From a virus (Duplodnaviria; Heunggongvirae; Uroviricota; Caudoviricetes): DNA of 13,420 bases. The first letter of the stretch is position 1. The number at the start of each line of letters is the position of its first letter. The notes under the pieces were generated by a model, which saw only the letters and a list, made by a program, of their open reading frames with translations, did no database searches and was not told the DNA's origin. The DNA lies in IMG/VR virus record IMGVR_UViG_2913177423_000002; one strand, given 5' to 3'. This document shows, in pieces, positions 10,518-13,420 of the stretch. The translations under genes were made by a program, and so were the position numbers.

Positions 10518-11168
10518 ATGAATACACAACTGATGGGTGAGCGTATTCGCGCTCGCAGAAAAGAACTCAAGATTAGGCAGGCTGCCCTTGGCAAGATGGT
10601 TGGCGTGTCTAATGTTGCTATTTCCCAATGGGAGCGTTCTGAAACTGAGCCCAATGGCGAAAACCTATTGGCCTTAGCCAAGGCTTTGCAGTGCTCCCCT
10701 GATTACTTGTTGAAAGGAGAAGATAGTCTTTCAAACATTGCCTATCACAGCAGGCATGATCCAAGAGGTTCGTATCCTCTAATTAGTTGGGTAAGCGCAG
10801 GATGTTGGATGGAAGCTGTAGAGCCATATCATAAGCGTGCAATAGATAACTGGTACGATACAACCGTAGATTGTTCAGAAGATTCGTTTTGGCTGGACGT
10901 AAAGGGTGATTCGATGACGGCTCCAGCCGGTCTTAGCATCCCGGAAGGGATGATAATACTAGTCGATCCTGAAGTAGAACCTCGTAATGGGAAGCTGGTA
11001 GTGGCAAAGCTCGAAGGAGAAAACGAGGCAACTTTCAAGAAGTTAGTTATTGATGCTGGCAGAAGGTTTCTAAAACCACTTAACCCACAATATCCGATGA
11101 TTGAGATCAACGGGAACTGCAAAATCATCGGTGTAGTTGTCGATGCAAAAATAGCAAACCTTCCATAA
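10518..11168 (+). CDS. c2: Prophage repressor, P22 C2 type (HTH plus S24 LexA-like autocleavage domain)
   Basis: 216 aa; N-terminal helix-turn-helix (QAALGKMVGVSNVAISQWERSE), Ala-Gly cleavage site and GDSM serine motif with downstream lysine. Near-identical to P22 C2 as I recall it. Confidence 0.95.
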   Translation: MNTQLMGERIRARRKELKIRQAALGKMVGVSNVAISQWERSETEPNGENLLALAKALQCSPDYLLKGEDSLSNIAYHSRHDPRGSYPLISWVSAGCWMEAVEPYHKRAIDNWYDTTVDCSEDSFWLDVKGDSMTAPAGLSIPEGMIILVDPEVEPRNGKLVVAKLEGENEATFKKLVIDAGRRFLKPLNPQYPMIEINGNCKIIGVVVDAKIANLP

Positions 11169-11190: not shown

Positions 11191-11231
11191 TTCCTTTAAA
11201 AATCAAAGCAAAACTTAAACTTCGCAATAAA

Positions 11232-11285
11232 ATTTAAGTTTTCTTCAAAAATACCCTTGACCACCAATTAAAGAAATCTTAAATT
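11232..11285 (+). promoter_or_regulatory. OL operators and PL promoter
   Basis: Operator-consensus sites at 11232-11249 (ATTTAAGTTTTCTTCAAA) and 11267-11284 (ATTAAAGAAATCTTAAAT); -35 TTGACC (11257-11262), 17 bp spacer, -10 TAAATT (11280-11285) overlapping the second operator. Confidence 0.6.
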
Positions 11286-11331
11286 TAAGTCATCAGCAGG
11301 ACGCTGGTAGCCAAACGGAACAGATTGGCAG

Positions 11332-11371
11332 GCTCTTTAACATTGATGGGATTGTCCCGCCGAAATGCGGG
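11332..11371 (+). promoter_or_regulatory. nutL-like site (boxA GCTCTTTAA plus boxB hairpin)
   Basis: GGCTCTTTAACA (boxA 11332-11340), spacer, CCCGCCGAAATGCGGG (boxB 11356-11371); boxA and boxB are identical to the nutR copy. Confidence 0.7.
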
Positions 11372-11394
11372 AACCAAAGAGTAGTTGGCTTTGG

Positions 11395-11460
11395 GGTGAC
11401 GTAAAGTGCAGCCGCGCAACAGCATCAGGGAGTTAACCTCCCTCCCCCAGTTACGTCACC
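11395..11460 (+). promoter_or_regulatory. Structured N-leader element (long-range inverted repeat enclosing a hairpin); possible RNase III-type processing or translational control site
   Basis: GGTGACGTAA (11395-11404) pairs with TTACGTCACC (11451-11460); inner hairpin GGGAG-TTAAC-CTCCC (11428-11442); ends 16 nt before the N-like RBS GGAGG. Confidence 0.4.
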
Positions 11461-11486
11461 GCTAAAGTCAATCATCGGAGGTCAAC

Positions 11487-11792
11487 ATGACAGTAGTCAT
11501 TACATATCTGGCTGACGATAACGCCAGAAATCGCCGCAGAGCACGCAGACAGGCTCAACGTGAACAGGCAATGAAAGAACAGAGACTGGCGCGAAAGATT
11601 GCGCTAAAACTCTCTGGTTGCGTCAGAGCAGACAAAGCAGCATCACTTGGCAGCCTTCTCTGCAAGAAAGTAGATGAAGTCGAGAAAAAAAATAGGAGGG
11701 TTTACTACAAGGATTTAAACCCATTAGGAAACAAGATACATGCAGTTCAAAGAATAAGATTGTATAGTAAACCACCGTACGGTGCTTATTGA
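11487..11792 (+). CDS. N: N-like transcription antiterminator with arginine-rich motif
   Basis: 101 aa; N-terminal ARM NARNRRRARRQAQREQ resembles lambda N QTRRRERRAEKQAQ; first gene after PL and nutL; GGAGG RBS. Confidence 0.75.
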   Translation: MTVVITYLADDNARNRRRARRQAQREQAMKEQRLARKIALKLSGCVRADKAASLGSLLCKKVDEVEKKNRRVYYKDLNPLGNKIHAVQRIRLYSKPPYGAY

Positions 11793-11794
11793 GT

Positions 11795-12133
11795 ATGCTT
11801 ATGGTGAAAAAGACTATCTATGTTAACCCTAACTGCGGACAAAACAGGAAAGTATTTGATAGAGGTCTTACACCTCAAGACAGAAGGAGAATAACGAGAT
11901 GGGAAAAGAGAATGGCATATGCATTAGAAAACGGTGTAACACCTGGATTTAATGCTATAGATGACGGTCCGGAATATAAGATTAATGAAGACCCAATGGA
12001 CAAAGTTGACAAAGCATTAGCAACACCATTTCCTCGAGATGTAGAAAAAATTGCAGATGAAAAATATGAGGATGTAATGCACAGAGTTGTTAACCACGCT
12101 CACCAACGAAATCCAAATAAAAAATGGTCATAG
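11795..12133 (+). CDS. Hypothetical early-left protein (about 112 aa)
   Basis: Track ORF 11789-12133 (TTG); ATG at 11795 is more likely, immediately after the N-like stop. No family recognised. Confidence 0.5.
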   Translation: MLMVKKTIYVNPNCGQNRKVFDRGLTPQDRRRITRWEKRMAYALENGVTPGFNAIDDGPEYKINEDPMDKVDKALATPFPRDVEKIADEKYEDVMHRVVNHAHQRNPNKKWS

Positions 12134-12156
12134 CCCACTTCGGTGGGTTTATTATT
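12134..12156 (+). terminator. Terminator-like hairpin with UUCG tetraloop (tL1-like)
   Basis: cccac-TTCG-gtggg (12134-12147) followed by TTTATTATT. Confidence 0.5.
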
Positions 12157-12266
12157 GTCCGAACTAACCGAATTTATTACAGCAAGCCACGCAGTGAAAT
12201 GGGTGTAACTTGTGTTGGTCGCCAGAAAATGAAATTAGGCAGCAAACCACTTATTTAAGGTGAGAT

Positions 12267-12353
12267 ATGGAAGAAGAATTTGAAGAGTTCGAAGAGCATC
12301 CGCAGGATGTGATGGAGCAATACCAGGACTATCCGTATGACTACGACTATTGA
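12267..12353 (+). CDS. Very acidic 28 aa peptide (Glu/Asp/Tyr-rich)
   Basis: ATG at 12267 preceded by AAGGTGAG; MEEEFEEFEEHPQDVMEQYQDYPYDYDY. Below the ORF-track cut-off; overlaps the next ORF start by 17 nt. Confidence 0.35.
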   Translation: MEEEFEEFEEHPQDVMEQYQDYPYDYDY

Positions 12354-12537
12354 TAAAAATCAATGGTGTGGACAATTCAAACGATGCAATGGATGCAAGC
12401 TGCAATCGGAATGCATGGTTAAGCCTGAAGAAATGTTTCCTGTAATGGAAGATGGGAAATATGTCGATAAATGGGCAATACGAACGACGGCAATGATTGC
12501 CAGAGAACTTGGTAAACAGAATAACAATGCTGCCTGA
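12337..12537 (+). CDS. Small Cys-containing hypothetical protein (66 aa)
   Basis: Track ORF; CGQFKRCNGCKLQSEC cluster near the N-terminus. No family recognised. Confidence 0.45.
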   Translation: MTTTIDKNQWCGQFKRCNGCKLQSECMVKPEEMFPVMEDGKYVDKWAIRTTAMIARELGKQNNNAA

Positions 12538-12673
12538 TGGTGGCCTTTATTTTTGGCATAAACAACAGAATAAACACAGCACTGTGTATTCATTCCAACG
12601 AGTGAATACACGGAGCAATGTCGCTCGTAACTAAACAGGAGCCGACTTGTTCTGATTATTGGAAATCTTCTTT

Positions 12674-12699
12674 GCCCTCCAGTGTGAGGGCGATTTTTT
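12674..12699 (+). terminator. Rho-independent terminator
   Basis: Stem gccctc/gagggc (12674-12691), loop CAGTGT, then TTTTTT (12694-12699). Confidence 0.6.
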
Positions 12700-12719
12700 A
12701 TCTATGAGGATATGAATAG

Positions 12720-13088
12720 ATGTCAAACATCAAAAAATACATCATTGATTACGACTGGAAAGCATCAATAGAAATTGAAATCGACCATGACGTAATGACA
12801 GAGGAAAAACTTCACCAGATTAATAATTTCTGGTCAGACTCTGAATACCGACTCAATAAACACGGCGCTGTATTAAATGCTGTATTAATCATGCTGGCGC
12901 AACATGCTCTGCTTATAGCAATTTCGAAAGACTTAAATGCATATGGTGTTGTTTGTGAGTTCGACTGGGATGATGGAAATGGTCAGGAAGGATGGCCTCC
13001 AATGGATGGTAGTGAAGGAATAAGAATTACCGATATCGATACATCAGGAATATTTGATTCAGATGATATGACTATCAAAGCCGCCTGA
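12720..13088 (+). CDS. Acidic hypothetical protein (122 aa)
   Basis: Track ORF with GAGGA RBS; C-terminal third rich in Asp/Glu/Gly (WDDGNGQEGWPPMDGSEGIRITDIDTSGIFDSDDM). No family recognised. Confidence 0.6.
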   Translation: MSNIKKYIIDYDWKASIEIEIDHDVMTEEKLHQINNFWSDSEYRLNKHGAVLNAVLIMLAQHALLIAISKDLNAYGVVCEFDWDDGNGQEGWPPMDGSEGIRITDIDTSGIFDSDDMTIKAA

Positions 13089-13163
13089 GCGCGGCTTTAC
13101 CGCATACCAATAATGCTTCACCAGAGGCATTTTCGTTATGCAATCAAATATAAGGAGTTACCC

Positions 13164-13298
13164 ATGATGCACTTTCAGCTCGCGGGTAGCGGCGTCATGT
13201 CCGCTTTCTACCCGCACGAATCTGAATTATCACGCCGAGTTAAACAATTAATCAGAGCAGCAAAGAAACAACTGGAGGCGTTATGCGCAATGAAATAG
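13164..13298 (+). CDS. cIII: CIII-like protein (44 aa, putative FtsH inhibitor)
   Basis: ATGATG at 13164 with AAGGAG RBS (track ORF begins earlier at 13113). QLAGSGV...HESELSRRVKQLIRAAKKQLEAL parallels lambda CIII AIAGWPVAGCPSESLLERITRKLRDGWKRLIDIL (recalled): same AG motif and amphipathic helix. Confidence 0.65.
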   Translation: MMHFQLAGSGVMSAFYPHESELSRRVKQLIRAAKKQLEALCAMK

Positions 13299-13420
13299 CC
13301 ATCAATCACCAGATGCTTCGTGCAGCACAAAACAAAGCAGTAATAGCCCGATTTATTGGTGATTCAAAAATGTGGCTTGAAGCAAATAAAGCGATGAAAT
13401 GTAGTGGCATAGTAAATTTG
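13283..13420 (+). CDS. kil: Kil-like protein, N-terminal part (ORF continues past the window end)
   Basis: ATG at 13283 with GGAGG RBS; MRNEIAINHQMLRAAQNKAVIARFIGDSKMWLEANKAMK; the segment IARFIGDSKMWLEA resembles lambda Kil IATFIGDEKMFREA (recalled). Confidence 0.55.
   Translation, partial: MRNEIAINHQMLRAAQNKAVIARFIGDSKMWLEANKAMKCSGIVNL

Follow-up and report, generated by a model that had tools for sequence, protein, structure and literature searches.

Maps of bacteriophage lambda have shown the gene ea10, its place in the PL operon and the terminator upstream of it since the early 1980s, and lambda tL2 is known as a multi-terminator region. The original GenBank record of lambda (J02459) labels the gene 'ea10 (ssb;122)'. 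This label is the source of the name 'ssb', which has spread to phage 21, phage 434, Stx phages, BcepMu gp03 and the gene table of the yeast two-hybrid paper on lambda, while the homologous genes in hundreds of lambdoid and Stx phage records are named 'Ea10', 'ssb' or 'ssDNA binding protein'.

Ea10 is among the few abundant lambda early proteins without an assigned function. It is documented as 'abundantly produced' from PL, at one time it had been confused with Kil, and lambda strains carrying (sieB-ea10)<>cat are viable (PMC3961180). Lambda 366 and its derivative 1390, which have IS10 inside ea10, are viable as well (PMC2327257), and the gene was scored non-essential in lambda by CRISPRi (PMC10695390). 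In a yeast two-hybrid map of lambda, Ea10 appears in only one interaction. Our search of the literature for ea10, DUF2528 and lambdap45 has found no functional study, despite 40 years of annotation, and no report of measured ssDNA binding by Ea10.

The region just upstream of the gene has been characterized more closely. Between ral and ea10, lambda encodes LPR1, an Hfq-bound sRNA of ~88 nt whose 3' end is the terminator tL2a; this sRNA raises the expression of host dnaN and supports phage replication, while the role of ea10 itself, according to the same preprint, 'is not fully understood' (bioRxiv 10.1101/2024.10.31.621285).

In this work, we have analysed a stretch of 13,420 nucleotides from a virus of the Caudoviricetes (IMG/VR record IMGVR_UViG_2913177423_000002), hereafter the window. 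An initial annotation, made from the letters alone, had described an unrecognised acidic protein of 122 residues in it, with a terminator and leader of its own and possibly an inhibitory activity against a host nuclease or defence protein. We have compared this gene, its surroundings and its protein family with lambda and other temperate elements.

Results

Identity of the gene and organization of the operon

The 122-residue ORF is present on the plus strand at the place described, with the C-terminal sequence that had been quoted, and it lies upstream of cIII as proposed (Table 1). Its product has the same length as lambda Ea10 (NP_040621 / UniProt P68658, 122 aa) and is identical to it at 119 of the 122 residues (98%), the three substitutions being S50A, S70K and N84D. 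DUF2528 (PF10800) is matched over its full length (profile positions 1-104 of 104) with 156.2 bits against a curated cut-off of 22 (E=4e-46), and phrog_646 is matched over positions 1-122 of 122 (E=8e-70). Both signatures of the family, the EIDHD motif at residues 20-24 and the EGWPxMDGSxGI loop at 90-101, are found in the protein, and the gene order ral - tL2a - ea10 - cIII - kil is that of lambda and phage 21. Near-identity and synteny together make it practically certain that the ORF is the orthologue of lambda ea10 in the corresponding regulatory context. The protein is thus not unrecognised. Searches of NCBIfam and PADLOC profiles with the protein gave 0 matches, no characterised homologue of unrelated function was found, and expression is on record for the lambda counterpart, as cited above.

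Table 1. Features of the PL operon around ea10 in the window.
Feature	Coordinates	Strand	Evidence or remarks
PL-like sigma-70 promoter, TTGACC-17-TAAATT	11257..11285	+	Consensus scan, 9/12 match
nutL-like site	11332..11371	+	boxA-like GCTCTTTAACA 11332-11342; boxB-like hairpin CCCGC-CGAAAT-GCGGG 11356-11371; read from sequence
N-like antiterminator gene, 101 aa, arginine-rich N-terminus	11487..11792	+	phrog_271 E=1.7e-29
Nun-like transcription-termination/exclusion factor gene, 114 aa, full length	11789..12133	+	phrog_5632 E=2.6e-66
ral (restriction alleviation), upstream neighbour	12337..12537	+	Pfam Ral PF11058 E=9e-48, full length
Putative LPR1 equivalent, ~88 nt, ending in tL2a	12612..12699	+	88/88 nt identical to lambda
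Intrinsic terminator tL2a	12672..12699	+	8-bp G+C-rich stem 12672-12693, 6-nt loop, T6 at 12694-12699
Shine-Dalgarno sequence GAGGA	12706..12710	+	9 nt 5' of ATG
ea10 coding sequence	12720..13088	+	ATG start, 122 aa plus stop, DUF2528 family
Terminator-like hairpin between ea10 and cIII, AATGCTTCACCAGAGGCATT + T-rich tail	13112..13141	+	Scan: 8 pairs, 3 G-C
cIII, 44 aa, HK022/P22-type, downstream neighbour	13164..13298	+	Pfam cIII PF08134 E=5e-30; phrog_550

The ea10 segment of the window is 99.6% identical to phage mEpX2. No single phage record spans at least 80% of the window, in which the early genes of a mosaic lambdoid phage lie together with its immunity region.

The promoter listed in Table 1 is inferred to be PL from its position just downstream of a cI-like repressor gene (10518-11168). 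We take the segment that follows it to be a nut site, by its likeness to the boxA consensus and the boxB stem-loops of lambdoid nut sites, and the phage 21 record annotates boxA-L/nutL at the equivalent position. The N-like and Nun-like genes overlap by 4 nt and are arranged in tandem in one PL operon. In HK022, Nun sits at the position of N, and to our knowledge HK022 is without N; a phage with both genes in tandem in one PL operon would be unusual. Lambda itself differs here, as it has N-sieB-orf28 where the window has the N-like and Nun-like pair. Downstream of ea10, cIII has its own ribosome-binding site (AAGGAG, 13152-13157), and the start of kil overlaps the end of cIII at ~13283; the mEpX2 record has a cIII CDS and Kil at equivalent positions. 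The cIII product is also unlike that of lambda, which is 54 aa long.

Apart from tL2a, three terminator-like hairpins were found on the plus strand: one after the Nun-like gene (12132-12149), one overlapping the stop codon of ral (12529-12544), and the one in the ea10-cIII spacer (13112-13131 without its T-rich tail), which presumably lies where lambda has tL2b. These hairpins along the PL operon fit a multi-terminator tL2 region. The terminator scan gave 4 sites compared with 1.9 +/- 1.3 in shuffled sequences, a number that is not significant alone.

The terminator and leader of ea10

The strong terminator that had been noticed at 12674-12699 is indeed a hairpin followed by six T, base-for-base the same as in lambda, with a stem core of GCCCTC (12674-12679) and GAGGGC (12686-12691) and a folding energy of -12.7 kcal/mol. 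The identity with lambda comprises the whole 88 nt up to the T-run, at the same position between ral and ea10, and no difference was detected; the 5' end of the window LPR1 is assumed here from the length reported for lambda. These 88 nt fold stably (-30 kcal/mol, z=-2.9). The entire spacer between ral and ea10 has 99% identity with lambda and phage 21, with the hairpin and the T-run invariant among them, and the phage 21 record annotates a terminator and a ribosome-binding site at equivalent positions. The hairpin before ea10 can be equated with lambda tL2a, and it would at the same time form the 3' end of LPR1, the Hfq-dependent sRNA; that this sRNA is expressed, binds Hfq and regulates dnaN has been shown in lambda itself, to which the likeness of the window is one of sequence. 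A scan of 11200-13420 matched no Rfam family, which means that LPR1 is not in Rfam 15.

The GAGGA ribosome-binding site had been correctly recognised as well, while the leader of 28 nt depends on how it is counted: it is ~28 nt from the 3' arm of the stem and 20 nt from the last T of the T-run to the ATG. We have also considered an independent promoter for ea10 and rejected it, because the promoter scan found no promoter-like site between tL2a and the ATG. In 11200-13420 as a whole, the promoter-like sites are PL and a minus-strand match at chance level (2 found, 5.3 expected).

Among 91 lambdoid loci, an LPR1-like sequence of at least 70 nt sits 20-21 nt upstream of ea10 in 89, while ral is found in just 48. 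LPR1 is more tightly linked to ea10 than ral is, which suggests that the sRNA and the gene have been inherited, and perhaps selected, together. On the other hand, the homologues in Mu-like elements (see below) adjoin or overlap the preceding gene, and there is therefore no room for a terminator. The terminator and leader that had been assigned to the gene itself, as a possible sign of separate regulation, are thus real as a hairpin, but this hairpin is tL2a, the 3' end of LPR1, which Mu-like homologues lack: tL2a is a terminator internal to the PL operon of lambdoid phages, and ea10 does not have it as a regulatory device of its own.

By analogy with lambda, unmodified RNA polymerase starting from PL would halt at tL2a and release the LPR1 precursor, while polymerase modified at nutL by the N-like protein would pass it. 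In this scheme, ea10 would belong to the delayed-early genes: it would share a transcript with cIII, kil and the recombination genes, while its translation would start from a GAGGA site of its own. As an N-like gene and a nutL-like site are located upstream, the lambda scheme is the most economical reading; transcription would most likely reach ea10 by antitermination, as expected of an ordinary delayed-early gene of PL. A point against N read-through of tL2a is that the same phage also encodes a Nun-like terminator factor.

The structural model of Ea10

Ea10 of the window is a protein of 13.8 kDa with a pI of 4.31 and a net charge of -14 (9 K/R, 23 D/E). Its C-terminal third (residues 82-122), which had been described as rich in Asp, Glu and Gly, does contain 11 D/E and 6 G with 2 K/R (net -9), and the N-terminal third is also acidic (net -5).

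We have built an AlphaFold2 model from an alignment of 52 homologues, which are 36-95% identical to the window protein. The model has a mean pLDDT of 95.1 and a pTM of 0.86, with no disordered segment. The predicted order of elements is a beta-hairpin (strands 4-11 and 15-22), four helices (28-37, 41-48, 51-70 and 74-79), a long loop containing the conserved EGWPxMDGSxGI sequence, and a third strand (101-107). Ea10 is thereby predicted to be a fully folded single-domain alpha/beta protein. Its acidic C-terminal third, modelled at pLDDT 87-96, is predicted to be folded as well and not a disordered tail. We have considered whether the central, hydrophobic helix 51-70 could be a transmembrane segment, and this was rejected: most members of the family have K57, R61 or E62, and the helix is modelled inside a confidently folded compact domain.

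In a Foldseek comparison of the model with the PDB, no relative was found (best E=1.8), and nothing resembled Ocr, ArdA, Gam, Abc2 or anti-defence folds, that is, the model has no likeness to a known anti-restriction or anti-RecBCD fold. Against the viral models of BFVD, a single match was obtained, an unnamed viral protein with 23% identity. Sequence and profile searches against all PDB chains gave 0 matches at E<=10, and a search of Pfam at E<=5 with 52 members for a hidden superfamily link returned noise only (V-ATPase_H_C, Homeobox_KN). Judged from the model, Ea10 would have an orphan alpha/beta fold among the PDB and BFVD searches.

The DUF2528 family and its distribution

A full HMM scan yielded 576 clusters of DUF2528 proteins at 50% identity. 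Nearly all members are stand-alone proteins of 115-135 aa. The longer ones (152-217 aa) were searched for domain fusions, and they contain DUF2528 only, with no second or enzymatic domain; their extensions are therefore uninformative or mis-called starts. The acidity is a property of the whole family. In the first alignment of 52 members, the pI ranges from 4.05 to 4.79, and in a deeper alignment of 128 sequences with 24-70% identity, 99% of the sampled members have a pI <5.5.

The best-conserved positions in the 128-sequence alignment are D22, F37, W38, R44, E90, G91, D96, G97, S98 and G100. Within the Asp/Glu/Gly-rich stretch singled out by the initial annotation, the DWDDG part (DWDDGNG, residues 83-87) is a subfamily-specific insertion, gapped in ~60% of the deep-family members. 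Nowhere is the family better conserved than in the adjacent EGWPxMDGSxGI loop.

Among 17 divergent genome loci classified by BLAST markers, 7 are Mu-like and 3 are lambdoid; further neighbourhoods include a phage-186-type CII region, a P4-like primase element and a locus adjoining DUF3164. In Mu-like prophages, the homologue is located just after the MuA/MuB genes and before GemA and Mor, with Mu Gam adjacent or close by, and its junctions are often tight, with the MuB stop abutting the DUF2528 start or the Mu Gam stop overlapping it. DUF2528 homologues with 27-53% identity are in fact standard in the 'semi-essential' early region of Mu-like transposable prophages, and their carriers include elements of Salmonella, Serratia, Citrobacter, Oceanobacter and Pseudoalteromonas, the Burkholderia phage BcepMu (gp03), and deltaproteobacterial MAGs. 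In the literature searched, we have not found a description that connects a lambda PL gene with Mu-like phages in this way. As the relatives occur in several types of element, ea10 can be regarded as a mobile accessory gene, carried in the early operons of several temperate elements that are unrelated to each other.

In addition, copies of ea10 with 96-98% identity were seen in assemblies labelled Enterococcus, Bradyrhizobium, Paenibacillus, Kitasatospora, Pseudoxanthomonas, Shewanella, Neobacillus and others. These copies are on tiny or ~48.4-48.5 kb contigs, mostly with ~1x coverage where it is stated, and they are almost certainly contamination with lambda control or ladder DNA and not real prophages.

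Discussion

As a discovery, the present result is minor: ea10, the terminator before it and their location in the PL operon are already known, and the second function of this terminator, as part of the sRNA LPR1, was described in 2024. What the analyses have added concerns the protein. They provide a confident model of an orphan fold, a set of conserved and probably surface-clustered residues (D22, R44, E90, D96 and S98), a case against the 'ssb' label, and a family of 576 clusters common to several unrelated temperate architectures, where it is always in the early host-takeover operon. Taken together, these make a targeted search for the host partner worthwhile.

In the reading that we favour, with rather less than an even chance of being right, the abundant Ea10 would bind a host protein stoichiometrically, through its acidic surface. 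The target would be a conserved proteobacterial protein, most plausibly one for nucleic-acid handling or for defence, and the candidate interface would consist of D22, R44, E90, D96 and S98, whose clustering in three dimensions is deduced from the order of secondary structures. Binding would condition the cell for early phage DNA metabolism. Such a host target would explain why elements of all four kinds (lambdoid, Mu-like, 186-like and P4-like) have ea10 in an early operon, and also why the gene is not needed on laboratory K-12.

The inhibitor of a host nuclease or defence protein that had been suggested from position and charge is a plausible idea in this respect, and it fits the conserved acidity, the abundance, the dispensability and the early accessory operons beside Gam-type genes. 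The known DNA mimics, such as T7 Ocr, ArdA and lambda Gam, are likewise small, very acidic, early, abundant and non-essential in permissive laboratory hosts, and they are encoded beside other anti-host genes. However, they have no fold or sequence similarity to Ea10; the mimics are elongated, helical, DNA-shaped dimers, while Ea10 is modelled as a compact globular alpha/beta domain. That the predicted fold matches no known DNA mimic, anti-restriction or anti-RecBCD protein has to be counted against a host binder. Acidity and a place in an early operon are generic, being common to many phage proteins of unrelated roles, and the conserved Asp, Glu, Ser and Arg would suit a small enzyme or a metal site equally well. 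We put forward only tentatively, and a little more cautiously than the binding of a host protein as such, the more specific proposal that Ea10/DUF2528 is an unclassified fold serving as an abundant, acidic, nucleic-acid-mimicking inhibitor of a conserved proteobacterial protein of DNA metabolism or defence, and that it has passed horizontally from one early operon to another among the four kinds of element. If this were true, a 40-year-old 'ssb' annotation in the best-studied phage would be wrong.

Instead of a host protein, Ea10 might act on the phage's own machinery. It could serve the early proteins of replication, recombination or transposition as a chaperone, or modulate them, and products of neighbouring genes such as Kil, CIII or Gam would be further candidates. 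The gene is always co-directional, and often translationally coupled, with early replication or transposition genes, as the junctions with MuB and Mu Gam illustrate, and the lambdoid linkage of LPR1 and ea10, tighter than that of ral, points in the same direction. Yet no early protein is evidently present in all of the lambdoid, Mu-like, 186-like and P4-like elements, which have only functional analogues in common; even lambda Gam and Mu Gam are unrelated families. A conserved host target accounts for the distribution more simply, and the loss of ea10 has no phenotype in lambda growth. We consider an action on phage proteins rather doubtful.

Somewhat less probable again, and unlikely in our view, is a small enzyme or a binder of a metal or ligand, with D22, R44, E90, D96 and S98 as its site, which for example sequesters or degrades a signalling nucleotide. 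That the most conserved polar positions in the 128-sequence alignment are Asp, Glu, Ser and Arg would agree with this, as would their location, at the end of strand 2 and in the Gly-rich EGWPxMDGSxG loop before strand 3, and small phage 'sponge' proteins are similar in size. Nevertheless, there is no structural or sequence match to a known enzyme or nucleotide sponge, the best Foldseek match to Acb4 (E=3.4, TM 0.15) being noise. H23, the histidine of the EIDHD motif, is only 55% conserved in the deep family, and the high abundance of Ea10 suits a stoichiometric role better than a catalytic one.

The legacy label would make Ea10 an ssDNA-binding protein that coats ssDNA in Red recombination or replication. 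It has in its favour the wording of the original lambda record, copied to phage 21, 434, Stx phages and BcepMu gp03, and the fact that ea10 shares its operon with gam, bet and exo. The properties of the protein argue in the opposite direction: neither an OB-fold domain, nor a match to an SSB family HMM, nor a basic or aromatic DNA-binding surface was found, the protein having the strongly negative charge given above and its family being acidic almost throughout. Because no OB fold or basic surface was found, the label is unsupported, and we regard ssDNA binding as very improbable. Least credible is a SPFH/Band-7-like domain acting with cIII on the FtsH-HflKC axis, thereby tuning CII stability and the choice between lysis and lysogeny, which we judge unlikely. 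None of the 52 family members has a Band_7 match at E<=5, and the N-terminus (MSNIKKYIIDYDWK) is hydrophilic, with no membrane anchor.

One further feature of the C-terminus may be mentioned. Residues 112-122 (13055-13088) include F-D-S-D-D-M, for which the family consensus is F-D-x-D-D-[MF], and this segment is loosely like the acidic tip of E. coli SSB (...DFDDDIPF). The segment is ~45-55% conserved and is not at the extreme C-terminus, and the likeness is probably a coincidence. If Ea10 does compete for the pockets that bind the SSB tail, a link to the old 'ssb' label would be possible.

Finally, the comparison with mEpX2 has brought out some differences in annotation. Its record (PV340544, 2025) has a minus-strand 'hypothetical protein' (2209-2478 in the locus numbered L002 here) where the window has the plus-strand ral, and it names cIII 'hypothetical protein / repressor'. 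As the ral ORF of the window is a perfect full-length match to Pfam Ral, ral appears to have been mis-called in the mEpX2 record.
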